Assembly: GCA_030697645.1 (NCBI GenBank)
Contig: JAUYPI010000014.1
Location: forward strand, 12,136-76,135
DNA: 64,000 bases
DNA from: a bacterium
GTDB taxonomy: Bacteria > Patescibacteriota > Minisyncoccia > Phycocordibacterales > VMGT01
Direction: 5' to 3'
Part shown: positions 5,765 through 59,956 of the stretch, piece by piece
Numbering within the stretch: the stretch's first letter is position 1
Layout: every line of letters starts with the position of its first letter
Made by a program: the position numbers and the translations under genes
Notes under the pieces: model-generated
Database searches by the model: none
Told to the model about the DNA's origin: nothing
The model's input: the letters and a program-made list of their open reading frames with translations, nothing else

Positions 5765-7018
5765 TCAAATTTTGAAGACGTCAACGTCGAGCTCGGCGAG
5801 GAGAATATCGCGCGCGTGAATGCCTAGGTCTTCTATGGTGCGGACGCCGTATTTCTCAAACGGGATTTCAAACTCAACGCCGCGCTGCATTTTCTCGCGC
5901 GATGTAAGTACCGCCGCACGCGCCCTCTGTCGCGCGCCACGGAGAGCACGGATGCGGTGGTGGATGCCAAGGCGCCGCCCGAGGAAAACGATGAGGGCGC
6001 GGGGTAGTGCGAGCAGCGCACGGCGGCGCATAACGAGCTGTTCTGCGCGCGGGCGAGAGTGCAACACGCGAAACAGATTTAGCCAATTGCGCGGGAAATC
6101 ACGCGCGTCCATATTGAGATACACGAGCTCATCGAGATGCGCTCTGAGCACTCGATCAAGACGAATCGGTATGTCAGAAACAAGCTCCGGCAACAACTTC
6201 TTGACGCGGAGAAAGCTCTCGAGCAGCGCGTTACTGTACGTATGCGCGGTAAGCGGGCTCTCGCGCAGGGGAAACGCATCACGCTTGAATCGCGCGCGCG
6301 CCGCCGTGGACCACGCCTGGCTCATTGAGATCCCAAACCGACCGACCACGACGACCGGCGTGTCAATGAAAATGCACGAGCGCGCGAACGAAAGAAGAAT
6401 CGGCTGGTGCGAGTGAGCCGTGGGCATGTATTCAAACACGACGGTGTCTGCGCGCGAGAACGCTCGCTCGACCGCCTCGCGCGAAATCACCGTTGCCGAC
6501 GTGTGCAAACGCGGCATCTCGCCTGCCCCACCGCGCCGCGCAAATGAAAAGAGCGCCATGAGCATGGCGCGCGGACTTACATCGCATGTCGCTCCCGTAA
6601 ACGGCACAACGCCGAGGTGGTTGCGCAGATAATGCCGCGGGTGCGCACCGTCGTAATAATAGAGATGGCTTGCAGTAACGATGTCCGGGTTATCCTCGCT
6701 GTCAATCACGCGCTTAAAAACGGCGAGCGCGTGCGGGAGGAGATAATTGTCATCGTCGAACCAGAGGATATAGCGCCCGCGCGCCTGAAGCGCGCTGTAG
6801 TCGAACGAGTAATTCGGCCCGCGTCCCTGCGGCACCACAAAATATCTGATGCGGCTGTCGCCGGAGGAGAGTACCGCGCGCTTCGTCTCCTCCGAGCCGC
6901 GCACATCGGCAACCACAATCTCAAAATCCTGACACGTCTGCGCCAAGACCGAGCGCACCGCCATCGCGATCAGCACAGGCCGATTGCCGCCAGTGGGAAT
7001 CAGAATAGAAAAGAACAT
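5765..7018 (-). CDS. Family 2 glycosyltransferase
   Basis: N-terminal GT2 signature (FSILIPTGGNRP ... DFEIVVADV ... FDDDNY). Confidence 0.75.
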   Translation of the reverse strand: MFFSILIPTGGNRPVLIAMAVRSVLAQTCQDFEIVVADVRGSEETKRAVLSSGDSRIRYFVVPQGRGPNYSFDYSALQARGRYILWFDDDNYLLPHALAVFKRVIDSEDNPDIVTASHLYYYDGAHPRHYLRNHLGVVPFTGATCDVSPRAMLMALFSFARRGGAGEMPRLHTSATVISREAVERAFSRADTVVFEYMPTAHSHQPILLSFARSCIFIDTPVVVVGRFGISMSQAWSTAARARFKRDAFPLRESPLTAHTYSNALLESFLRVKKLLPELVSDIPIRLDRVLRAHLDELVYLNMDARDFPRNWLNLFRVLHSRPRAEQLVMRRRALLALPRALIVFLGRRLGIHHRIRALRGARQRARAAVLTSREKMQRGVEFEIPFEKYGVRTIEDLGIHARDILLAELDVDVFKI

Positions 7019-7053
7019 ACGGTATCCTTAAATCCGATATTCGAATTTCGAAT

Positions 7054-8070
7054 TTAATTGAGTGGTATCTCCTCCCAGTTGTATACCCAGCCATCTCTCG
7101 TGGGCGACGCAAACCTGCCGCGATAATAGTCTCTATTCAGGAGTTCGGTCGGCGTCATGTCCCTCTCGGCGCTCCCGAGGAGCGTCTGCCAAAGCGGAAT
7201 GTCACGCTCCACTTCCGTGCGCTGCGCCCCGCTCGAGAGTCTTCGGAAACGATCGAGCTCGGCAAGGAGCTTCGGCGTTATTGAAACCGGCCCGTCTTTC
7301 GACTGATCGGCAGCGAGTACGGTAAAATGCCGCTCGACGTAATCAGCGCCAAGCATGATCGCGACTTTTGCAGCCGTGATTCCATCGCGACCGACGTGCG
7401 TGTGGTCAGACCAGCCGACCTGCGGCACATGTTGTCTCAGCCAGTCCATACGAGCGAGGTGCGCCATCTCGAGCGTGTTCGGGTAACTCGTCACGCAGTG
7501 GAGAAACGTGAACTCCTTACCGAGCTCGCGCATGAGGGAAGCGGTTGCTTCAATCTCCTCGTCGTATGTTGCTCCGGTCGAAATAATGAAGCGATCAAAA
7601 TACTCTGCGAGCTCGCGGAGCAGCGCCGGACTCGCGCAATCATAACTGGCGACTTTGACAATCCGCTCGGGCCACGGCAGTGCACCAACGCCGGGAACGC
7701 GGTGCCGCGCAAAAATCGTCGTCATCGGCACGACGCCATACTTCACGCACTGCTCGATAAAAAAACGGTGGTCGTCGAGTGTGAGGTCGAGCTTGGCGAG
7801 CCGCTCGCGCTCAGCGTCAAAGGGACGCTTGATCGTCTTCACCGAGCCGTCGGGATGTGTCTCGCCTTCCTCAAAGCGCGAACGGTCTCGGAGGTCCTCG
7901 GACCACATCGACTGCATCTTCACGATGTCGGCGCCGTTTTCTGCCGCAGCGCGAATCTGCTGCGCGAAAATTTCGCGGTCGCCGTTGTGATTTTGGCAGA
8001 GTTCGACGATGAGTTTAGTCATTTGTTTATTGGAAAGTAGAAAAGTGGAAGGTGGAGAGTAGTACGACAT
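7054..8070 (-). CDS. NeuB-family sialic/nonulosonic acid synthase-like protein (no SAF domain)
   Basis: NeuB motif (ELCQNHNGD ... GADIVKMQS ... SDHT). The likely start is the internal Met (MTKLIV) at 8032, and the protein lacks the C-terminal SAF domain seen in the paralog at 44568-45644. Confidence 0.65.
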   Translation of the reverse strand: MSYYSPPSTFLLSNKQMTKLIVELCQNHNGDREIFAQQIRAAAENGADIVKMQSMWSEDLRDRSRFEEGETHPDGSVKTIKRPFDAERERLAKLDLTLDDHRFFIEQCVKYGVVPMTTIFARHRVPGVGALPWPERIVKVASYDCASPALLRELAEYFDRFIISTGATYDEEIEATASLMRELGKEFTFLHCVTSYPNTLEMAHLARMDWLRQHVPQVGWSDHTHVGRDGITAAKVAIMLGADYVERHFTVLAADQSKDGPVSITPKLLAELDRFRRLSSGAQRTEVERDIPLWQTLLGSAERDMTPTELLNRDYYRGRFASPTRDGWVYNWEEIPLN

Positions 8071-8110
8071 CGTACGCGTCGCCCGTCCCCATTATCTACT
8101 TTCTACTCTC
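8036..8110. repeat. Compound palindromic intergenic hairpin (family 3; GAGAGTAG / AAGGTGGA motifs)
   Basis: Inverted arms gaaggtggagagtag ... ctactctctaccttc enclose the perfect palindrome gtacgacatcgtac. A related element lies at 22255-22335. Confidence 0.6.
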
Positions 8111-8821
8111 TACCTTCTTGTGCGCCACCGCCCCGTATCCTTCCGCGTACCAGTCCTTGCCTGTACGGAGATTCGGATTGGTCATCGTGCGCGCCACGAG
8201 AAAAATGCCACGCGCGCACCACCGGAGCAGGGCAACAGAAGCATAACCACACGCTTTTACGGCCAGATTTCTGCGGAAGCGCTGTCGCACGCTTGCCTTG
8301 GCGGTTCTAAAAAATCCGGTCTGTACTTTCTGCATCACGTCGATGACATTCCCGCTTGGCTCGACAACGACGTCTACAAACCCAGCGTGAGACAGAAGGT
8401 AACGCAGCATGTAGTGCGTGTAGCGCAGATAATCGTGCGGCTCCTGGTGAATTGAGATAAAAAACGGTACGAGTATCACGATCTTTCCGCCCGGTTTCAA
8501 AATGCGGTAACAGTGTGCAAGCACCGCTTTAGGATCGGGGACGTGCTCAAGTACATTCGAGAGCACCACAATGTCCGCGATCTCGGAGGAGAGTGGTATA
8601 CCGGCGACAATATCGGTAACAACATCGACGCCTGGGAACTGAACGAAGTCGACACCGATATAGCTGCCTTGCCGCAAAAGATCCCCATACTGACCTTTTC
8701 CCGCGCCGATGTCAACTATAACCGTCTCGGGAGTGATTCTGCCGATCTCGCGCCGGAAGTACTCATAGCCCCACAGCCTATTCTGTGACCACCCGCGCTT
8801 GTTTTGAGGATCGCCGTTCAT
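8096..8821 (-). CDS. Class I SAM-dependent methyltransferase
   Basis: Motif I VDIGAGKGQYG, motif post-II (KPGGKIVILVP). Confidence 0.75.
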   Translation of the reverse strand: MNGDPQNKRGWSQNRLWGYEYFRREIGRITPETVIVDIGAGKGQYGDLLRQGSYIGVDFVQFPGVDVVTDIVAGIPLSSEIADIVVLSNVLEHVPDPKAVLAHCYRILKPGGKIVILVPFFISIHQEPHDYLRYTHYMLRYLLSHAGFVDVVVEPSGNVIDVMQKVQTGFFRTAKASVRQRFRRNLAVKACGYASVALLRWCARGIFLVARTMTNPNLRTGKDWYAEGYGAVAHKKVESRK

Positions 8822-8827
8822 GCCGCC

Positions 8828-10120
8828 TTATTGTACACCCCCGTCGCTCCTTAAAAAATCCTCGACAAACCGCGCTGCGCTCACGGAGTGGCCGTCAAGC
8901 GTCCCCCACCGCTCGAAGATGCACGTGCGAAGTGTCTCCATCGCGACGCACACGGAGGGCAGTCGTCCCGTGAGTTCACTAAGGGGTTCGCCCCTGTAGA
9001 CAATGCCGATCCCAAGCCGCTCGATCATTTTATTATTAAAATAAATCTCCGGATCATCTACCGGATCAAACGCGGGAACGACGATCGGGACACCTGTCGT
9101 AAGCGAGAGCCAGATCGAGCCCCATCCCGCACGAGCAAATTGAAACACGATGTTCGAATCGACAATGACGTCCGGCGGCATACGCATGCTGCCGGGAGGG
9201 ACTCCCTCGGTAGTGCTATAAATCGCGAGGCCCAGGTCCGTAGCCTCAGTATACAACCTCTCTAACCCCGCTATGCCGGTCACCGTTACGAGGATGCCGG
9301 GCTTCTCGAGCGGCGCGGCGGTCTTGGGCTGCTGCGAGGTGAGCGGCGGAGTAAGAAAGGTTGTAGGTTGTAGGTGGTAGGTGGTAGGTGGTAGGTCGCC
9401 CGTGAACCCCGTTAGAGAACTCACACAGGGCATCGAATCCCGTGTGTGTATTGAGCCGCTAGACCCCGCGGCTTGCCGCGCGGCATTCTCGAGCGGGGTG
9501 AACGTGCCGGGGAAGCCGACGGCGTGCATACGCTGTCCCTGCTCTACCCATTCTGCGGACTCGATTCCCTGCTGAAGCACATCCGCGGGAATCGCAATCG
9601 CGCCCGGCGGCTCTCGGAGCGCACGGGTGAAAATATCCGAAAGAAAACCAAATGTAGTCGAATACGCCGGTGCGATATCAAAACGAAGTCGCGGCGAGCG
9701 GCTCATCTCGATAATAATCTGTCGGCCGTCGACCACGCGCTCCGTACCGTCAAATGCGTGCACGGCGAAAGTGCCGGAGAGGTGCTCGTGCGCGCGCGCT
9801 GCCGTGTCTCTCACTCGCTCAATCCAGCGCGCAAGCGAGACGGCATAGTCGGCCGTGCCGTCATAAAAAATTTCCCGGAGCATCATGCCGAGATTCTCGT
9901 CGAGCACAATCTCCTCCGGCCGCGCGCGGAGAAAGGAGGCGAACTCCTCGCGCATCACCGCGCGCTGTCGCTCGCCATAGACGAGCGGCACGATAATCGC
10001 CGAGCGCTCTCTCCCCCGCCGCTCGAGCTCGTCATTGAACGCAATCGCCAGCTCGGTCGTATGCAGGTACGGCCCGGTGCCGTAGGCGAAATTCGTCACT
10101 ATATACTGACGCGATGGCAT
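8828..10120 (-). CDS. GT-B fold glycosyltransferase (MurG/GT28-like C-terminal domain) with Pro/Thr-rich interdomain linker
   Basis: C-terminal region DSNIVFQFARAGWGSIWLSLTTGVPIVVP resembles the MurG/UDP-glycosyltransferase donor-binding domain. The linker is encoded by heptanucleotide repeats at 9359-9400. Confidence 0.45.
   Translation of the reverse strand: MPSRQYIVTNFAYGTGPYLHTTELAIAFNDELERRGRERSAIIVPLVYGERQRAVMREEFASFLRARPEEIVLDENLGMMLREIFYDGTADYAVSLARWIERVRDTAARAHEHLSGTFAVHAFDGTERVVDGRQIIIEMSRSPRLRFDIAPAYSTTFGFLSDIFTRALREPPGAIAIPADVLQQGIESAEWVEQGQRMHAVGFPGTFTPLENAARQAAGSSGSIHTRDSMPCVSSLTGFTGDLPPTTYHLQPTTFLTPPLTSQQPKTAAPLEKPGILVTVTGIAGLERLYTEATDLGLAIYSTTEGVPPGSMRMPPDVIVDSNIVFQFARAGWGSIWLSLTTGVPIVVPAFDPVDDPEIYFNNKMIERLGIGIVYRGEPLSELTGRLPSVCVAMETLRTCIFERWGTLDGHSVSAARFVEDFLRSDGGVQ
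9359..9400. repeat. Six tandem heptanucleotide repeats (2x ggttgta + 4x ggtggta) inside the coding sequence
   Basis: Counted directly in the sequence; the tract encodes the LPPTTYHLQPTTF linker. Confidence 0.9.
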
Positions 10121-10147
10121 GGCAAGATGTAGCCTTCTAACCGCAAC

Positions 10148-11896
10148 TCACAACATCCGATAGTCTACGCCCACAACCTTCATGACTTCATCACGCTGAT
10201 AGAGCGCCCAGGGATCAAACAGGAGGACGCCCGCGCGCGAGAGCGCGAGGAGTTTGCGGATCGGGAGCGAGCGGAGTGCGCGATGATTCGTCATCACGAT
10301 AACTGCGTCGGCGTCGCGGAACACCTCGGCGCTCGTGCGCGCGACCTCAATGCCGAGCGCGGCGATCTCGGGTCGCGCGACCACCGGGTCGTAACCGACA
10401 ATCGTCACGCCACGCTCTTTTCGCAAGAGAGCGACAAGCTCGAGTGTCGGCGATCCACGCATGTCTGAGGTCGGCGGCTCGCCTTTGAATGCAAGGCCGA
10501 GAACGCCGACGCGGAGCGCTCCTCTGCCTCGCGCCTTCCGCCGCGCGCGGAGAAATGCGCGGATTTCGTCCGCAACGACGGTAAGAATCGCGACGTTCGT
10601 CTCCCGCGCATCTCGAGCAAGCAGGGGAGTATATTCGCGCGCGTGTGCGGAGGCGATATAGAGAAACGGGTCTTTCTCGAGGCAGTAGCCGCCGACGCCG
10701 GGGGATGGCCGCGGCACCATCGAGCGCGGGTAGCCAGTGTTTGCCGCAGAAATCACCCGCTGTGTATCAATGCCCCATCTGCGACAAATCAACGATACCT
10801 CGTTTGCAAACGCAAACGTAACATCGCGGTAGGTATTATTAACGAGCTTGACCATCTCTGCCTCTTCAAGTGTGTCTACGATTATCACCGTATCGGTCAT
10901 GAGATTAAAAATCGCCGCAGCCGCGTTCGTGCTTGCTCGATTGATTCCACCAACGACCTGCGGGAGAGAGCGGAGCTCGGACAGCGCCTGGCCTTCTACT
11001 GTGCGCTCCGGCGCAAACGCAACAAAAAAATCCTCGCCTGCCTTAAGGCCGGAGCGCTTCTCAAGAGTTGGCACTACAACATCGCGCGTCGTGCCAAGCG
11101 GAACGGTAGAGCGGAGGATAACGCTGTCGCCGCGCTTGAGAACGCGGCCGACTGCGTTCGCGGCATCCTTCAGGTGTGCGAGCTGCGGACGCTGCTCTCT
11201 ATCAAGCGGTGTCCCCACTGCGATGATGTAGACATCTGCGAGACTACGCTCGTCGAGGCTCGTGAGCACGCTGAATCGCTTGCCGACATGATCAGTAAGC
11301 AAATCCTCTATGCCTTCCTCAAAGAACGGCGCTTTTTTACGTCGCACGAGGGCCGTGAGTTCCGCGTTCGTGTCAAAGCCCACGACGCGAAAGCCGAGAT
11401 CAGCGAACGTAAGCGCGAGCGTGAGACCGACGTAGCCGAGGCCGATAACAGCGACACGCTTTGCCCGGACGTCCGCAGCGAGCCAGAGCTCGTGGAACCA
11501 CACGATATCTATCGGCCGCCCGTCTCGATCAATAACGACTATTTTTTCAAAGTGCTTCTTCTGCCACCCTCCCTCTCTCATACGCGCGACCACCTGCTCA
11601 AAGAGTGCTGCCGGTTCCTCCCGGCCCCGTACCGTAAACGGCTGCGGGTTCATCACGCTCTTAAGCGGCTCGTCCGAGGTCGCGCCGCGGCCGAGAGCCC
11701 GACGGATGTCACCGTCGGTCGCAATACCGACGAGCTTACCCGTCTCATCAACAACCAGCACAATCCCGCCGGGCAATTCCGACACTCCCGGATCCTGCCG
11801 ATTCATCAGCGCAAGCGCCTGCCCGAGCGTCTGGTCGTAGGATAGTATAAGCGAATCTATAGATTTTTTCGTCTGCTCCATACGCAAAAAACTCAC
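10148..11896 (-). CDS. CBS-domain-fused UDP-glucose/GDP-mannose dehydrogenase family nucleotide-sugar dehydrogenase
   Basis: N-terminal CBS-like module of about 130 aa, then GLGYVGLTLA Rossmann motif, catalytic GGYCLEKD and the C-terminal UDPG_MGDP_dh domain. Confidence 0.8.
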   Translation of the reverse strand: MSFLRMEQTKKSIDSLILSYDQTLGQALALMNRQDPGVSELPGGIVLVVDETGKLVGIATDGDIRRALGRGATSDEPLKSVMNPQPFTVRGREEPAALFEQVVARMREGGWQKKHFEKIVVIDRDGRPIDIVWFHELWLAADVRAKRVAVIGLGYVGLTLALTFADLGFRVVGFDTNAELTALVRRKKAPFFEEGIEDLLTDHVGKRFSVLTSLDERSLADVYIIAVGTPLDREQRPQLAHLKDAANAVGRVLKRGDSVILRSTVPLGTTRDVVVPTLEKRSGLKAGEDFFVAFAPERTVEGQALSELRSLPQVVGGINRASTNAAAAIFNLMTDTVIIVDTLEEAEMVKLVNNTYRDVTFAFANEVSLICRRWGIDTQRVISAANTGYPRSMVPRPSPGVGGYCLEKDPFLYIASAHAREYTPLLARDARETNVAILTVVADEIRAFLRARRKARGRGALRVGVLGLAFKGEPPTSDMRGSPTLELVALLRKERGVTIVGYDPVVARPEIAALGIEVARTSAEVFRDADAVIVMTNHRALRSLPIRKLLALSRAGVLLFDPWALYQRDEVMKVVGVDYRML

Positions 11897-12654
11897 AACT
11901 CCCCGCGCTCTTTGAGTGATCGGTAGATCGCCTCAGCGACTAGAAAATCAGTCGCGCTGTTGATATCCACCGAGCGCTCGTGCGGCATGATGTATGGTAG
12001 CACTTTTTCTCCCCACACTCTCCCCAGCTCCATGACGACCGAGCGTCTCGCCGCGTAGAGCCCGCCGTTTCGCTTATAGACCGACTCGAAATCCTGCCTA
12101 CGGGAGGTCGTAAGCTCCTCGGTACCCGAGACATATTGCTCAAGGAAACCATCGGCGCGCACTCGCTTCATCTTCACCGGGTGAAAATCTCTCACTTCAT
12201 ATACACTGACAATAGAGTCTGCCTCGCGGCGCGCGACAAGCATCTCGAGCGCCTCGTCAATATCGGCGGCGGTAAGAAATGGTGTCGTTGCGTGGAGCTG
12301 CACCACATAGTCTACCGCGCGCCCCATCTCGCGCTCAATCTCGCTCGTCGCATGTTGGAGCATGGGGACATCCGGGGTCGTATCAAGTGCAAGCTCCACT
12401 GGCCTCCGAAGCGCGACTTCCCTGCCTCCCAAAGAAGCAGCGATATCGAGCACCTCCTCGTCCTCGGAAGAAACAACGACGCGGCTGAGACTCGAGCTCG
12501 CCAGTGCCGAGCGCAGCATGTGCGCAAGGAGCGGCACGCCGCCAAGCGGCTTGATATTCTTCCGCGGCACGCTCTTGGACCCTCCGCGCGCGGGTATAAC
12601 GGCGAGTATATATGGGTTCATATAAACAACATCCCTCAACCAAACAATACGCAT
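11893..12654 (-). CDS. Acylneuraminate cytidylyltransferase family (CMP-nonulosonic acid synthetase, NeuA/LegF/PseF-like), paralog 1
   Basis: ILAVIPARGGSKSVPRKNIKPLGG motif typical of CTP_transf_3; the likely start is Met at 12621. Confidence 0.8.
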   Translation of the reverse strand: MRIVWLRDVVYMNPYILAVIPARGGSKSVPRKNIKPLGGVPLLAHMLRSALASSSLSRVVVSSEDEEVLDIAASLGGREVALRRPVELALDTTPDVPMLQHATSEIEREMGRAVDYVVQLHATTPFLTAADIDEALEMLVARREADSIVSVYEVRDFHPVKMKRVRADGFLEQYVSGTEELTTSRRQDFESVYKRNGGLYAARRSVVMELGRVWGEKVLPYIMPHERSVDINSATDFLVAEAIYRSLKERGEL

Positions 12655-12687
12655 CCACGCTCTTGTGACAGCGCTTTGGAAATTGGG

Positions 12688-12726
12688 TATTGGAAATTGG
12701 AAATTAAAATCTGTACCCTTTTCGCT
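12688..12726. repeat. Solo arm of intergenic repeat family 1 (ttggaaattggaaatt)
   Basis: Matches the terminal arm of the 140-bp palindromic elements at 32019-32160, 43185-43325 and 44400-44560. Confidence 0.5.
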
Positions 12727-29539: not shown

Positions 29540-32020
29540 ATGTCCATAATGACTCTAAAAAATAAATGGGTCGGCGCTAGTATCGGCGCGGTACTACTCG
29601 CAGGGGGCACGATGCTCCTCATAAAATTCGTCTTCCCCGAGCCGGTACGTCGCCCCATCGTCAATGAAGCGCGCGGCCTCTATGTCGCGCTCGAGCGCCT
29701 TACCGAAATACCTCAGAGTCTCACCGCGCGCCTCAAGCCGCTGCCTGTCCCCGCCTATCGCCTGGTCATAGACCCCGAGCACGAGCGCGAGCTCGACGAC
29801 TACTTCAGGATCCAGGAGGGCAACCTCGATCGCGAAAAAATCTACGTGCCTGCCGTCTTTTACGACCCCGACGGCCGCCGCTACGACGTGCGCGTCACCT
29901 ATCGGGGCGACGGCGGACAACATTTTCGTTTTCCACAAAAATCGTGGCGCATTGTTTTCCCGGACGAAAGTCTCTTCATGGGTAAAAAAGCGATCACCCT
30001 GATCTACCCTGAAGAGAGAGAGTTCCTCGTCGAGGCGACGAACTTCCACCGCGCAAAGAAACTCGGCCTCGCGGCGCCGGAAACCGGATTTGTCTACCTC
30101 TTCGTGAACCGCCATGAAGCTGGCCTCTACTATGAATTCGAACACTGGTCCGAAGAGTTACTCGAGCGCAACCGTCTTAAAACCGACGGAAATCTCTACG
30201 GTGAGCAGGGGCTCGGGAGCGAAGACCTCTACCGATCGACGAGCCACTGGCAGCAATACGTCGCAAACGCGCCGGGCGCGGAACATAAGGAAGATCTCGC
30301 GCTGCTCATCGCCATCCTCAACCACCCGTCGGATGAATACTTCAATCGCAACATAGACGACATACTCGATCTCGAAACGTTCTACCGATGGAATGTCCAC
30401 GCGCTCCTCTCCGGGAGCGAGCACCAAGACGCGATCCACAATGCCCGCCTCTACTTCGACCCGACGCTTGGAAAATTCAAATATATCCCCTGGGACGTCA
30501 ACATCGGCGATCTTGAGGCGCCGATAGAGTCGAGGGGTATCGACCCGAAAGACTACAATCCACTCGTGCTCCGCATCCTCGCCCACCAGCCGTTCCTCGA
30601 GAAGCGAAACAGGCTCCTGCGAGAGTACCTCGCCGACTCGGAAACGGTCGCGGACGATTTTCGGTACTACGATGAACTCTACCAAACGCTTCGTCCGGCG
30701 TTCTACCGCGATACTCTGAAAAATTACTCGAACCGCTTTTTTAGAGAGGAGGTGGCCCGCTACCGCGACATCCTCTCGCGCAACATCGCCTACCTCCAAG
30801 AGCACTACCTCGAGGCCGAACCCCCTCCCGCGGCTCCGGCAGAGCGAGAACGCCCGCTCGCCGAGCCAGACGGAGAGTATGCGCCTCCGGTGCCGACCGG
30901 AGATGCATTCACGTATTTTCACGACATCAGCCGTTCTCCGGAGGAATTCCTCGCCGCACACCCCAACTTCTCGAAAGATACCGCCGGAGAACTCCACCTC
31001 GGGCCCGGGAGCGTTGTACTCCGCGCCACGACGCTGGTGCCAGAAAACACACGCCTTCACATCGAGGCCGGAACCGATGTCTTCCTTGACGCTCATGCAT
31101 CTCTCGTGAGCTACAGTGCCATAGATGCCCGCGGCACAGCGGAGCGTCCGATACGCTTTCTACCGCTCAGCCCTACAGAGCCGTGGGGCACCCTTGCGAT
31201 CATCGACGCGCCGAACGAGAGCCGATTCGAGAACGTCTTCTTTCTCCATACTGCGAAACGCCCCGACCCCCCGCTCTCGCCGGATGAGCACCGCACGATC
31301 GCCGGACCTATTAACGGGATGCTGTTTCGCGGTATGGTCACGGTGCGCCACGCGGCGGTCTCGATCGCCGCAAGCACATTTGCGCACGCTGCGGGGGACG
31401 ATGCGCTCTCGGTCCAATACGGCAGCTTCGCAATAACCGATTCGCTGTTCCGAGATAATAGCGCGGATGCGTTTGACGCCGACTTTGCGAGCGGCACTAT
31501 CATGCGCACTGCCTTTCGCGACAGCGGCAACGACGGCGTTGACATTGACGGCACGAAGGCGCTCGTCGAGGACGTGGTCGTAACCCGCACGGGCGACAAA
31601 GGGTTTTCGCTCGGAGCAAGCACCGAGCTCGAGCTCAAGAACAGCGTTATCGATACGGCCGATATCGGCGTCGCGATCAAGGACGACAGCAGCGCGACAC
31701 TCACCCATGCTCTGATCGTTGGAGCGCGCATTGGGATCAATATCTATCACGATAATCCGATATTCCCGGCGGCAACCGCCACGGCGAAAGTCAGTGCCTC
31801 CGTAATCGCTCAAAGTACCGAGCGTACCATTTCTGTGCCACGCGACGCCCAGCTTGCCATGGACCGAAGCATCATTGAGGGCGGTTTCCCCGGCTCTGCC
31901 GAGGACGTCATAGACGTTACGCCGCGCTTTCGCAATGCGGCAGCTGGCGATTACCGCCTGCTTGATGCTCCAGGCGGAGAGACGATCGGGTTGAGGTATC
32001 TTCCGAGAGTACCGCGCTAA
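29540..32020 (+). CDS. Membrane-anchored CotH-family atypical kinase domain fused to a C-terminal right-handed beta-helix (pectate-lyase-like) domain
   Basis: N-terminal TM helix; CotH-like block (KSWRIVFP ... KKLGLAAPETGFVYLFVNRHEAGLYYEFEH); C-terminal Asn/Asp/Gly-rich beta-helix repeats. Confidence 0.65.
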   Translation: MSIMTLKNKWVGASIGAVLLAGGTMLLIKFVFPEPVRRPIVNEARGLYVALERLTEIPQSLTARLKPLPVPAYRLVIDPEHERELDDYFRIQEGNLDREKIYVPAVFYDPDGRRYDVRVTYRGDGGQHFRFPQKSWRIVFPDESLFMGKKAITLIYPEEREFLVEATNFHRAKKLGLAAPETGFVYLFVNRHEAGLYYEFEHWSEELLERNRLKTDGNLYGEQGLGSEDLYRSTSHWQQYVANAPGAEHKEDLALLIAILNHPSDEYFNRNIDDILDLETFYRWNVHALLSGSEHQDAIHNARLYFDPTLGKFKYIPWDVNIGDLEAPIESRGIDPKDYNPLVLRILAHQPFLEKRNRLLREYLADSETVADDFRYYDELYQTLRPAFYRDTLKNYSNRFFREEVARYRDILSRNIAYLQEHYLEAEPPPAAPAERERPLAEPDGEYAPPVPTGDAFTYFHDISRSPEEFLAAHPNFSKDTAGELHLGPGSVVLRATTLVPENTRLHIEAGTDVFLDAHASLVSYSAIDARGTAERPIRFLPLSPTEPWGTLAIIDAPNESRFENVFFLHTAKRPDPPLSPDEHRTIAGPINGMLFRGMVTVRHAAVSIAASTFAHAAGDDALSVQYGSFAITDSLFRDNSADAFDADFASGTIMRTAFRDSGNDGVDIDGTKALVEDVVVTRTGDKGFSLGASTELELKNSVIDTADIGVAIKDDSSATLTHALIVGARIGINIYHDNPIFPAATATAKVSASVIAQSTERTISVPRDAQLAMDRSIIEGGFPGSAEDVIDVTPRFRNAAAGDYRLLDAPGGETIGLRYLPRVPR

Positions 32021-32160
32021 ATTCCAAGCTCCAACCAACAATTTCCAAACAAAGCTCAAATTCCAATGCGCCAAATCTCAAACACGCCATTATCTGTGTT
32101 TGGAGCTTGGGGTTTGGATATTGTGATTTGTTTGGAGCTTGTTTCTTGGAATTTGAAAAT
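32019..32160. repeat. Palindromic intergenic repeat element, family 1, copy A (about 142 bp, imperfect inverted arms of about 65 bp)
   Basis: Left arm aaattccaagctccaaccaacaatttccaaacaaagctcaaattccaatgcgccaaatctcaaac is nearly identical to the copy at 44400; right arm ... gtttggagcttgtttcttggaatttg is its imperfect reverse complement. Confidence 0.85.
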
Positions 32161-38404: not shown

Positions 38405-38600
38405 TTAAGCAAGTGCGCACACCTTTTATTTTTGTGCATTGCGAGAGGTGTTTAGGAAATGGCGAGCCGAGTAGAAAAATGCAGCTGTCTGAGGCCGACC
38501 AGGAGGGAGGCCGAGTTCTGCATTTTTCGTAGACGAGGCGACACCATTTCCAGACACTTCAAGCACGAGCACAAAAATAAAAGGTGTAAGCACTAAAATT
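38405..38600. repeat. Structured palindromic element, family 2, copy 1 (about 195 bp)
   Basis: Perfect 20-bp outer inverted repeat (acaccttttatttttgtgc / gcacaaaaataaaaggtgt) around the conserved core gcgagaggtgtttaggaaa...gaaaaatgcag...ctgcatttttc shared with 59778-59949. Confidence 0.85.
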
Positions 38601-43127: not shown

Positions 43128-43184
43128 AACAAAAACTCAAAGTGTAAAATGCAAAGCGAAAAATAACAGTGCAAAAAGCAAAAC

Positions 43185-43325
43185 AAATTTCCAATTTCCA
43201 AAAAACCCGTCTCCAAACAAATCTCAAATTCCAATGCGTCAAATCTCAAACACGTACGTCGTGTTTGGAAATTGAAATTTGAATCATTTGTTTGAAGCTT
43301 GTTTTTTGGAATTTTGAATTTTGCT
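43185..43325. repeat. Palindromic intergenic repeat element, family 1, copy B
   Basis: ccaaacaaatctcaaattccaatgcgtcaaatctcaaacacgtacgtcgtgtttgga core. Its outer left arm is the reverse complement of the outer right arm of copy C. Confidence 0.85.
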
Positions 43326-43375
43326 GTGTTGTTTTGCAATTTTCGTTTTGCGATTTGCGCTTTATGTCATGTACG

Positions 43376-44399: not shown

Positions 44400-44560
44400 A
44401 ATAAATTCCAAGCTCCAACCAACAATTTCCAAACAAACTTCAAATTCCAATGCGCCAAATCCCAAACTCTCACGTCGTGTTTAGTCCGCCAGCTGGCGGA
44501 TTGGATTTTGAATATTGTGATTTGTTTGGAGACGGGTTTTTTGGAATTTGGAAATTCGAG
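44400..44560. repeat. Palindromic intergenic repeat element, family 1, copy C
   Basis: Left arm nearly identical to copy A; right arm atttgtttggagacgggttttttggaatttgg is the reverse complement of copy B's left arm. Confidence 0.85.
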
Positions 44561-52421: not shown

Positions 52422-53383
52422 CCGATGCATCAATCATCATCGTCTATCACTACATACAAAGAAAGGAGGAGCGGCCGAGAATGAAAGGCATGCTCGTGGA
52501 TGATTTTGAACGACACGTCAAACTTTTATTAGAAAGCGGGTATCGCATCGTGACGTTACATGAGTACCTCGAGGCGACAAAGGATTTAACCACTCTCCCG
52601 CCGTCGAAAATGGCCGTGCTGAGTTTTGACGACGGCCTCAAGGTTCATATCGAAAATGTAATGCCTCTGTTTCAAAAATATGGACTAAAAGGGAGCTTTT
52701 TTGTGATCACTCGCCCCTTGACTGATCGCTGGCTTGCTCCGGTCCACAAAAACCACCTACTTCTTGCTGCGTCGGTAGAAGAAGACTCCTTGTTTTCTGT
52801 TGCTGATTTGATTACCGAAGCCACGCGTTGGCTCGTTAAAAACAGCGGGGTTGCGGCTCCTCTAAACACCGAGGACCTGATCAAAAAATATGCAGCGATG
52901 TCTCCCTGGGACGACCAGACGACTGCATATTATAAATATCTGCTCAATGTTTTTGTTTCCGAACCTGTGCGCTCGTTACTTATTGACCACTTGTTTCGCG
53001 CGTTCTACGGCGAACTATCGGCGTGGGTTAGCAAATTTTATTTAGACAAAGAGGACATACAGCAGATGCAGCGCGCCGGTATGGAAATCGGCTCTCACTC
53101 ACATACACACCAATTTTTGTCTTCGCTTTCCGAAGAAGCGCAGCGCGAGGAAATCGTTCGCTCTAAAATAATACTTGAGGAAATTTTGGGGGAGATGAGT
53201 ACGTCATTTTCGTACCCGTACGGTTTAGGCGGAGCATACGATCAAGTTGCGATGGATATTGCAAAAACGTGCGGCTTCCGTGCAGCCCTGACATGCGAGA
53301 AAGGCTACGCCGCCGCGTCTCCGAGCCTACTCGCCATTAACCGGATTGACGCCAATGACATGCAGAAATATCTGATTACATGA
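52418..53383 (+). CDS. Polysaccharide deacetylase family protein (CE4, PEP-CTERM-locus-like subfamily)
   Basis: SFDDG ... HSHTH NodB-type motifs. Confidence 0.7.
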   Translation: MTDASIIIVYHYIQRKEERPRMKGMLVDDFERHVKLLLESGYRIVTLHEYLEATKDLTTLPPSKMAVLSFDDGLKVHIENVMPLFQKYGLKGSFFVITRPLTDRWLAPVHKNHLLLAASVEEDSLFSVADLITEATRWLVKNSGVAAPLNTEDLIKKYAAMSPWDDQTTAYYKYLLNVFVSEPVRSLLIDHLFRAFYGELSAWVSKFYLDKEDIQQMQRAGMEIGSHSHTHQFLSSLSEEAQREEIVRSKIILEEILGEMSTSFSYPYGLGGAYDQVAMDIAKTCGFRAALTCEKGYAAASPSLLAINRIDANDMQKYLIT

Positions 53384-59723: not shown

Positions 59724-59777
59724 ATCTAATCCCTGTAATTGTAATCACCCGCACGAAACACCAAACCTCTCGCCATA

Positions 59778-59949
59778 CCACCCACGTCTCATAATTTCGC
59801 GCATAGCGAGAGGTGTTTAGGAAACGCGAGCCTGAATAGAAAAACGCATCTGTTTCTGGCCCGCAGGCGAGTTATGCGTTTTTCGTCGCTGAGGCGACTA
59901 TCATTTCCAAACACCGAAGCTCGAGCGCGAAATTATGAGACGTGGGTGG
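59778..59949. repeat. Structured palindromic element, family 2, copy 2 (about 172 bp)
   Basis: Perfect 25-bp outer inverted repeat (ccacccacgtctcataatttcgcgc / gcgcgaaattatgagacgtgggtgg) around the same conserved core as 38405-38600. Confidence 0.85.
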
Positions 59950-59956
59950 TTACCCC

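Follow-up and report, generated by a model that had tools for sequence, protein, structure and literature searches.

A short heptanucleotide array lies within a gene for a glycosyltransferase-like protein in the 64,000-nt stretch of DNA analysed here (hereafter the window), which comes from contig JAUYPI010000014.1 of a Patescibacteria-like metagenome-assembled genome (MAG). The array occupies positions 9359..9393 on the minus strand, inside the open reading frame (ORF) 8828-10120 of the same strand, and was delimited by reading of the sequence, Tandem Repeats Finder (TRF), shuffling and codon phase. On the plus strand, the region 9359-9400 reads as two ggttgta units (9359-9372), three ggtggta units (9373-9393) and a final ggtcgcc. 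On the gene strand, the array is (TACCACC)x3 (TACAACC)x2, that is, only three identical units followed by two variant ones, so that it is an interrupted array. The degenerate 'sixth unit' (9394..9400; ggtcgcc on the plus strand, GGCGACC on the gene strand) shares 4/7 positions with the heptamer, and its DNA alignment with the two closest orthologous loci (L076 and L077) identifies it as the counterpart of non-repeat sequence, hence as ancestral flank. The first-pass annotation had described six units (ggttgta x2 and ggtggta x4); the period-7 array is indeed there but only five units (2 + 3) can be counted.

TRF delimits the tract as 9358-9396 (period 7, 5.6 copies, 96% matches) with a score of 64, the second-highest in the window. 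This score was not reached for any period from 4 to 12 in 200 dinucleotide-preserving shuffles of the window (mean maximum 39, largest 49), and the heptamer array is not due to chance. The window and an independent Logan assembly of SRR26726066 show 100% identity across 15,342 nt including the tract, whose length (39 nt) is far below read length; as this assembly agrees base for base, the unit count is no assembly accident. Codons 243-254 are in phase with the array and encode the Pro/Thr-rich peptide LPPTTYHLQPTT, which lies in the interdomain linker of the protein as initially proposed. The heptamer units are stop-free in every sense frame, so that steps of three units would only lengthen a benign linker. 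No further coding-region simple sequence repeat (SSR) was seen by TRF in the window, and the DNA fold of 9340-9500 is unremarkable (z = -1.86). Overlapping plus-strand ORFs, such as 9381-9575 whose GTG start lies within the repeat, were considered and rejected as non-coding, the minus-strand frame being conserved throughout hundreds of homologs.

The ORF carrying the tract (8828..10120, minus strand) encodes a protein of 430 aa that gave no match in Pfam and NCBIfam scans, even at E-values up to 10. A profile search against PDB sequences aligned its C-terminal motif with plant UDP-glycosyltransferase chains, but insignificantly (E = 1.3). The AlphaFold2 model obtained from a 64-sequence alignment (predicted local distance difference test score, pLDDT, 89.1; predicted template modelling score 0.90) comprises two Rossmann-like halves. 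The N-terminal one, delimited from the model and the invariant columns (residues 1 to ~207; 9500..10120, minus strand), ends at an invariant PxTF motif. The C-terminal one (residues 275-430; 8828..9298, minus strand), delimited in addition by Foldseek and by the slippage simulation described below, carries the motif FARAGWGS...DDPEIYFNN, which corresponds to the family-invariant pattern FARAGW.S.W...DDPEI.FNN. A Foldseek search of the PDB with this model retrieved 222 matches at E-values of 1e-3 or below, the top ones being GT1-type GT-B glycosyltransferases (E ~1e-10, template modelling score ~0.5), namely SbCGTa (6lg0), CalG3 (3d0r/3oti), EspG2 (5du2), an OleD-type enzyme (2iya) and YojK (7vm0). 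The model and these matches indicate that the product is a GT-B protein at the level of fold; the designation 'GT-B glycosyltransferase' used in the first-pass annotation holds at this level but finds no support among Pfam or NCBIfam models. PseG and NeuC have a GT-B fold too, and the protein is possibly a nucleoside diphosphate-sugar hydrolase/epimerase rather than a transferase, the conserved place of the gene between those for a nucleotide-sugar dehydrogenase and NeuB fitting either role. The sole low-confidence stretch of the model, residues 212-250, consists of a lineage-specific insert (low at residues 212-227) and of the repeat-encoded peptide (mean pLDDT of 54 at residues 241-250 versus 89 overall).

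Homologs of the GT-B protein are numerous (313 at E-values of 1e-3 or below) and typically 384-395 aa long, and the few that bear a source name come from Patescibacteria/Parcubacteria MAGs. Among GTDB species genomes, 64 genomic loci of the family were found, including a few from DPANN archaea (Woesearchaeota/Nanoarchaeia MAGs). The identical protein is on record as 'MAG: hypothetical protein Q8R39_03160 [bacterium]'. The family is widespread in Patescibacteria and belongs, though still uncharacterised, to the core of a NeuB-type pathway. Three MAGs have their homologous gene divided between two contig ends (L054/L066, L057/L067 and L056/L075), the break lying just 3' of the linker, at query residues ~275-298, in two of the three; sequence conserved between strains or species may have broken the assembly graph there.

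The gene belongs to a one-strand cluster (5765..12654, minus strand; identified from ORFs and family scans) that reads, in the direction of transcription, a PseF-like cytidylyltransferase scoring below cut-off (11893-12654), a protein with a CBS domain and a nucleotide-sugar dehydrogenase (10148-11896), the GT-B protein, a methyltransferase (8096-8821), a NeuB-family synthase (7054-8070) and a GT2 glycosyltransferase (5765-7018). Distant Peribacteria-labelled relatives (L078, L081, L084-L087) retain the core order dehydrogenase / GT-B / NeuB / cytidylyltransferase (CTP_transf_3), and the GT-B proteins of lineages sharing this order are only ~40% identical. Gene content and order point to a conserved nonulosonic-acid-like sugar pathway, and hence to a surface-glycan setting for the tract.

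The effects of gaining or losing units were simulated on the ORF for changes of +/-1, +/-2 and +/-3 units. Translation meets a stop after 275 residues for -1 unit, 293 for +1, 286 for -2 and 282 for +2, whereas changes of -3 and +3 units yield in-frame proteins of 423 and 437 aa. Every out-of-frame product lacks the whole C-terminal, donor-binding Rossmann domain (residues 275-430). As 7 is not a multiple of three, the frameshift that had been predicted for the gain or loss of one unit is borne out in silico, with truncation at residues 275-293 for changes of one or two units.

The two closest orthologs (P0002, 68% identical, and P0003, 65% identical; loci L076 and L077) are 392-393 aa long, 38 residues fewer than the window protein, and DNA alignment found no trace of the tract in either of them but non-repetitive sequence of similar length: the 35-nt array stands in place of 29 nt that are unrelated to it and mutually dissimilar (linker peptides STELERENA and LTESLIHINS). 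Orthologs with differing repeat numbers, which the first-pass annotation had suggested looking for, are thus not found among these closest relatives, which carry no repeat at all. The alignments indicate that the array is a local, lineage-specific tandem duplication in a poorly conserved hinge.

A second lineage-specific change is an in-frame insertion of 96 nt (9402..9497, minus strand; 32 aa), which precedes the array by 8 nt on the gene strand and was recognised from its absence in the closest orthologs, its coordinates and the low pLDDT of residues 212-227. It encodes PLENAARQ...SSLTGFT and has internal hairpins; its ends, CCCGCTCGAGAA and TTCTCTAACGGG, form an imperfect inverted repeat (10/12), and each junction carries a copy of the duplicated GTTCAC (6 bp). 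The insertion resembles a miniature inverted-repeat element that would have entered the gene in frame, as the palindromic elements of Rickettsia do. The block that separates it from the array is orthologous (GGGCGACC here versus AGCGACC and GGCGGCC, on the gene strand, in the closest relatives), which argues for two separate events in the window lineage. No second copy of the tract and insert region was detected by blastn in the window, nor of the insert in 783 kb of related loci, so that an origin from a multi-copy mobile element is not shown. Unrelated inserts of 25-40 aa are found at the same linker in other homologs (P0004, P0007, P0010, P0015, P0025, P0056, P0072, P0084 and L006:2366-2602), with further ones in P0041 (L014:6589-6843) and P0017. 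Their sequences resemble translations of palindromic repeat elements (HAERSEAS...RSFAxAQDD; SRESGNP...SGMT; VIPAKAGIH), and the L014 DNA encoding the SRESGNP...SGMT insert carries an 11-bp inverted repeat (TGTCATTCCCG / CGGGAATGACA). Throughout the GT-B family, the hinge thus seems prone to insertions, as a hot-spot would be.

Period-7 arrays have also arisen at this hinge elsewhere. A TRF scan of all homolog genes revealed just two further period-7 arrays with at least 3 copies, in L042 (TCAATTT-like x5) and L069 (TCCCTAC x3), both lying between the invariant PGTFS and VPPTI motifs, i.e. in the same linker as the window tract. The Peribacteria-labelled clade to which they belong, whose proteins are only ~40% identical to that of the window, was extended by P0122 and P0124-P0126 (69-76% identical to L042), retrieved as loci L078-L087, and every member retrieved has a linker with period-7 structure (arrays at L042:6557-6591, L069:6562-6583, L084-L087:2080-2100, L078:2075-2108 and L081:2056-2127). 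The clade units are TCAATNN-like: TCAATGC x3 in L084-L087, alternating ATCAATC / GCAAATC in L078 and degenerate units in L081. The flanks are near-invariant in protein and the linker peptide is hypervariable, but the PGTFS-VPPTI spacing is constant at 42 nt (6 x 7 nt, 14 codons) across species up to ~30% apart in protein sequence, with the exception of L080 (57 nt), which has a 15-nt non-repeat insert. The arrays are unchanged between strains of different samples that are 0.05-0.5% apart (L078/L079, 99.49% identical; L084-L087, 99.95-100% identical). The perfect triplets of different units, each specific to a lineage, imply that units turned over after the lineages split; since a 7-nt step shifts the frame, such a turnover would have required that out-of-frame intermediates be tolerated, that several units be gained or lost at once, or that indels compensate one another.

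The preference for this period and this place was also apparent when local self-similarity at lags 4-14 was scored in 65 distinct full-length genes. The six best lag-7 segments (window gene 29, L087 16, L069 15, L042 12, L025 11 and L079 10) all lie within the linker, ~20-120 nt downstream of the PxTF motif. Maxima for lags that are not multiples of seven are 7-12 and scattered along the genes, and the lag-14 peaks are the same arrays. These data indicate that slippage has repeatedly shaped the hinge.

The on/off phase variation that had been proposed for the gene implies length polymorphism, which was looked for in several collections. No near-identical locus was found in JGI metagenome contigs (best 51% identity) or in GTDB species genomes (best full-length 47%). 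A frameshifted allele would be expected as a ~100%-identical N-terminal fragment of an estimated ~500 bits, ranking fourth among the matches; no truncated near-identical fragment occurs among the 313 homologs. Nine distinct proteins predicted for slipped variants (0-6 copies of TACCACC and 0-3 copies of TACAACC, which covers changes of +/-1, 2 and 3 units) are absent from a collection of ~15 billion proteins in which the wild-type protein is present under two NCBI accessions with the same sequence. These negatives are real but weak, since the organism is represented by no more than two or three samplings (two NCBI protein records and one Logan contig). In the Peribacteria-labelled clade, ten predicted proteins for slipped variants of P0126 (6) and P0123 (4) are likewise absent from the protein collection, P0126 itself being present on nine contigs of several samples. 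In none of the 64 homolog loci are the N- and C-terminal halves in different frames. Every copy of the tract seen is in frame, and each of the seven species-level sequences that bear an array is in the ON state. The mechanical premises of phase variation stand, but the coexistence of ON and OFF alleles that would establish it was not found.

Heptameric periodicity is not restricted to the GT-B gene. The window contains 8 short period-7 arrays versus 1.22 expected, a number reached by none of 150 shuffles. Across 783 kb of related loci from the Candidate Phyla Radiation (CPR), period 7 equals periods 9 and 12 in frequency; the period alone is therefore not special to the tract. The other window arrays lie at 560-574, 7040-7055, 8095-8118, 12676-12705, 43186-43201, 43305-43323 and 43333-43363. 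Most of the window arrays are AT-rich and intergenic, and several lie at gene junctions or upstream of the glycan operon: a TTGGAAA-type array precedes the first gene of the operon, a TTCGAAT array precedes the GT2 gene, and the junction of the methyltransferase and NeuB genes has TCTACTT. At the corresponding methyltransferase junction, CAATTTC x5.4 is present in the ortholog contig L076. These intergenic arrays may be promoter or regulatory spacing elements.

A kinship of the tract with the family-3 intergenic hairpins of the window, in which the first-pass annotation had noted related gtaggtgg-type motifs, was rejected. Beyond the tract, the exact gtaggtgg 8-mer occurs only once, at 52753-52760 on the minus strand, and the look-alikes associated with hairpins are only 10-mers with 1-2 mismatches (GTGGGTGGTA/T), located at the outer ends of a single inverted repeat (59777-59802 / 59925-59950). 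This repeat delimits one of two intergenic palindromic elements of ~175 nt, the other being at 38412-38437 / 38569-38594; their 26-nt arms are 100% and 92% complementary, respectively, and a 79-nt direct repeat (73% identity) relates the two elements. Together with AATTTCC-rich inverted repeats at ~32018-32154, 43173-43334 and 44402-44556, they make up intergenic repeat families.

The tract is a candidate new case of the well-known class of SSR frameshift loci. A close parallel is neuO, the polysialic-acid O-acetyltransferase gene of the CUS-3 prophage in Escherichia coli K1, which undergoes phase variation through a coding-region (AAGACTC)n tract (PMC13001214). Both loci have a 7-base unit within the coding sequence for an enzyme of a sialic or nonulosonic-acid surface-glycan system, both yield a full-length protein only at a frame-keeping unit count (divisible by 3 in neuO), and in both the unit is stop-free in all frames, so that a three-unit step adds a heptapeptide (PMC13001214). 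However, the neuO tract is perfect, long and located at the 5' end, whereas that of the window has 5 units (3 perfect) in a mid-gene linker; the enzymes are unrelated (acetyltransferase versus GT-B fold); and neuO is demonstrably polymorphic, with 3-53 copies (most commonly 20), 65.6% of genomes OFF and colonies that are mixtures of 20, 21 and 22 units (PMC13001214), whereas no variation has been seen here.

The lipooligosaccharide and capsule glycosyltransferase SSR loci of Haemophilus, Neisseria and Campylobacter likewise have a non-triplet repeat in a glycan ORF that is truncated by a one-unit slip. Phase-variation surveys screen 6-9-nt repeats with a permissive cut-off of at least 3 units (PMC2651432, PMC5953494), which the tract passes as those loci do, its three perfect units being just at this minimum. 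Those SSR loci vary in repeat number from strain to strain and have measured switching rates, ~1e-4 per generation for long tetranucleotide tracts (PMC2651432), and the organisms are host-adapted pathogens with many such loci, whereas the tract described here is from an uncultured Patescibacteria-like MAG. Heptanucleotide tracts of proven switches typically exceed that of the window by far in unit number, those of hmw promoters having 13-38 copies (PMC2651432). A location deep in the ORF rather than at the 5' end has a precedent in hmw1A of H. influenzae PittAA (PMC2651432), but this (AATTTTG)14 array consists of fourteen perfect copies and a frameshifted allele of it has been observed, compared with five units, all in frame, in the window. 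Within the CPR, a PTD-repeat gene of Gracilibacteria also has tandem repeats coding for a Pro/Thr-rich peptide, for which slipped-strand mispairing was invoked (PMC6851277); unlike the tract, it consists of very long arrays of 9-nt in-frame units with an extreme population variability that breaks assembly, and it varies the sequence and length of the protein, not its ON/OFF state. None of the papers retrieved by a literature search on phase variation in the CPR appears to describe a frameshifting SSR switch, as judged mostly from titles and abstracts.

Taken together, the tract has an even chance of being a microsatellite born by slippage that now serves as a disordered Pro/Thr-rich hinge, fixed in frame and subject at most to low-rate loss-of-function slippage. 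Its history could be drawn as follows. Replication slippage in the window lineage would have produced a small microsatellite, which would now be part of the disordered hinge that joins both Rossmann domains in a GT-B-fold enzyme of the NeuB-type sugar pathway. One-unit slippage would still be commoner than ordinary mutation and, because only three perfect units precede two variant ones, far rarer than in proven heptanucleotide switches. A one-unit slip would create a null allele, with a protein truncated at residue 275-293, and would possibly be polar on the genes that follow (methyltransferase, NeuB and GT2). What the tract most likely yields would be sporadic loss-of-function mutants and turnover of the linker in evolution rather than a tuned, high-frequency ON/OFF switch. 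No region of the protein other than the linker accepts arbitrary sequence, which partly explains why arrays co-locate there. Several points weigh against this reading. Perfect triplets are present in three lineages (TACCACC x3 in the window, TCAATGC x3 in L084-L087 and TCCCTAC x3 in L069), and since single steps offer no in-frame route to 7-nt arrays, out-of-frame states may have been repeatedly tolerated. A merely tolerant linker predicts periods of 3, 6 and 9 at least as often, but lag-7 alone clusters there. Surface-glycan pathway genes are the classic home of contingency loci. Finally, the window organism has been sampled so sparsely that minority length variants may have gone unnoticed.

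It is possible, though less probable, that the tract is an active contingency locus, maintained by selection, in which slipped-strand mispairing reversibly toggles the GT-B enzyme and hence a NeuB-type surface sugar. Five units (a net offset of 6 nt) would be ON and four or six would be truncated before the C-terminal domain, with a benefit for example against phages or in host attachment. Such a switch would fit a non-triplet unit in a glycan-pathway ORF for which simulated changes of +/-1 and +/-2 units truncate the product and +/-3 keep the frame; it would have precedents in the heptanucleotide coding switch of neuO (PMC13001214) and the mid-ORF hmw1A tract of PittAA (PMC2651432), and the tract reaches the 3-unit cut-off of phasome surveys (PMC5953494, PMC2651432). 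The recurrence of period-7 arrays at the same linker in a clade ~40% identical, with units that differ but are internally homogenised, and the location of the top six lag-7 signals of 65 genes in this linker also speak for it. However, the array is interrupted, with only three perfect units, and is located in the middle of the gene, away from its 5' end; the searches revealed neither a length variant nor an OFF allele nor a truncated fragment, and all seven array-bearing sequences are ON; the repeat is absent from the closest orthologs; the arrays of the clade keep to 42 nt (57 nt in L080) instead of being spread over 21, 42 and 63 nt; and period-7 arrays, mostly intergenic, are over-represented in these genomes generally. 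An extension of this proposal to the whole CPR-wide GT-B family is rather unlikely. The linker of the family would then be a selected frameshift switch, for which two or more distant Patescibacteria lineages (that of the window and the Peribacteria-labelled clade) would have recruited or maintained arrays at one and the same hinge; units would turn over in these arrays at a constant ON length, and the switch would toggle a NeuB-type nonulosonic-acid surface sugar.

It is improbable that the tract is a remnant of foreign or mobile DNA inserted at a hot-spot rather than a product of local slippage. The neighbouring 96-nt insertion, with its 10/12 inverted ends and its GTTCAC duplication, and the unrelated palindromic inserts at the same site in other homologs would make such an origin conceivable, as would the enrichment of intergenic period-7 arrays in the window, their frequency in CPR loci and the resemblance of the Peribacteria-labelled units (TCAATTT) to the CCAATTT-type intergenic arrays of the window. 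However, orthologous sequence (GGGCGACC) parts the insertion from the array, neither is duplicated in the window or in the 783 kb of related loci, and the GC-rich unit of the tract is unlike the AT-rich intergenic arrays. An assembly artefact or a chance similarity is very improbable: although the source is a MAG and repeats can be mis-assembled, the 39-nt tract is far shorter than a read and base-identical in two independent assemblies, the frame is intact on both sides and matches the homologs, and 0/200 shuffles reach its TRF score.

If the linker were a selected switch, it would be the first SSR contingency locus described in the CPR and would suggest bet-hedging at the interface of an episymbiont with its host or with phages. 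Should the tract itself switch, an uncultured ultra-small bacterium would share the surface-sugar bet-hedging of Haemophilus, Neisseria, Campylobacter and E. coli K1, and unit counts at the level of reads would make surface variation accessible in organisms that resist cultivation. Without switching, the locus would still show how slippage and small insertions remodel the sole unconstrained hinge of a highly conserved, Pfam-less enzyme family.

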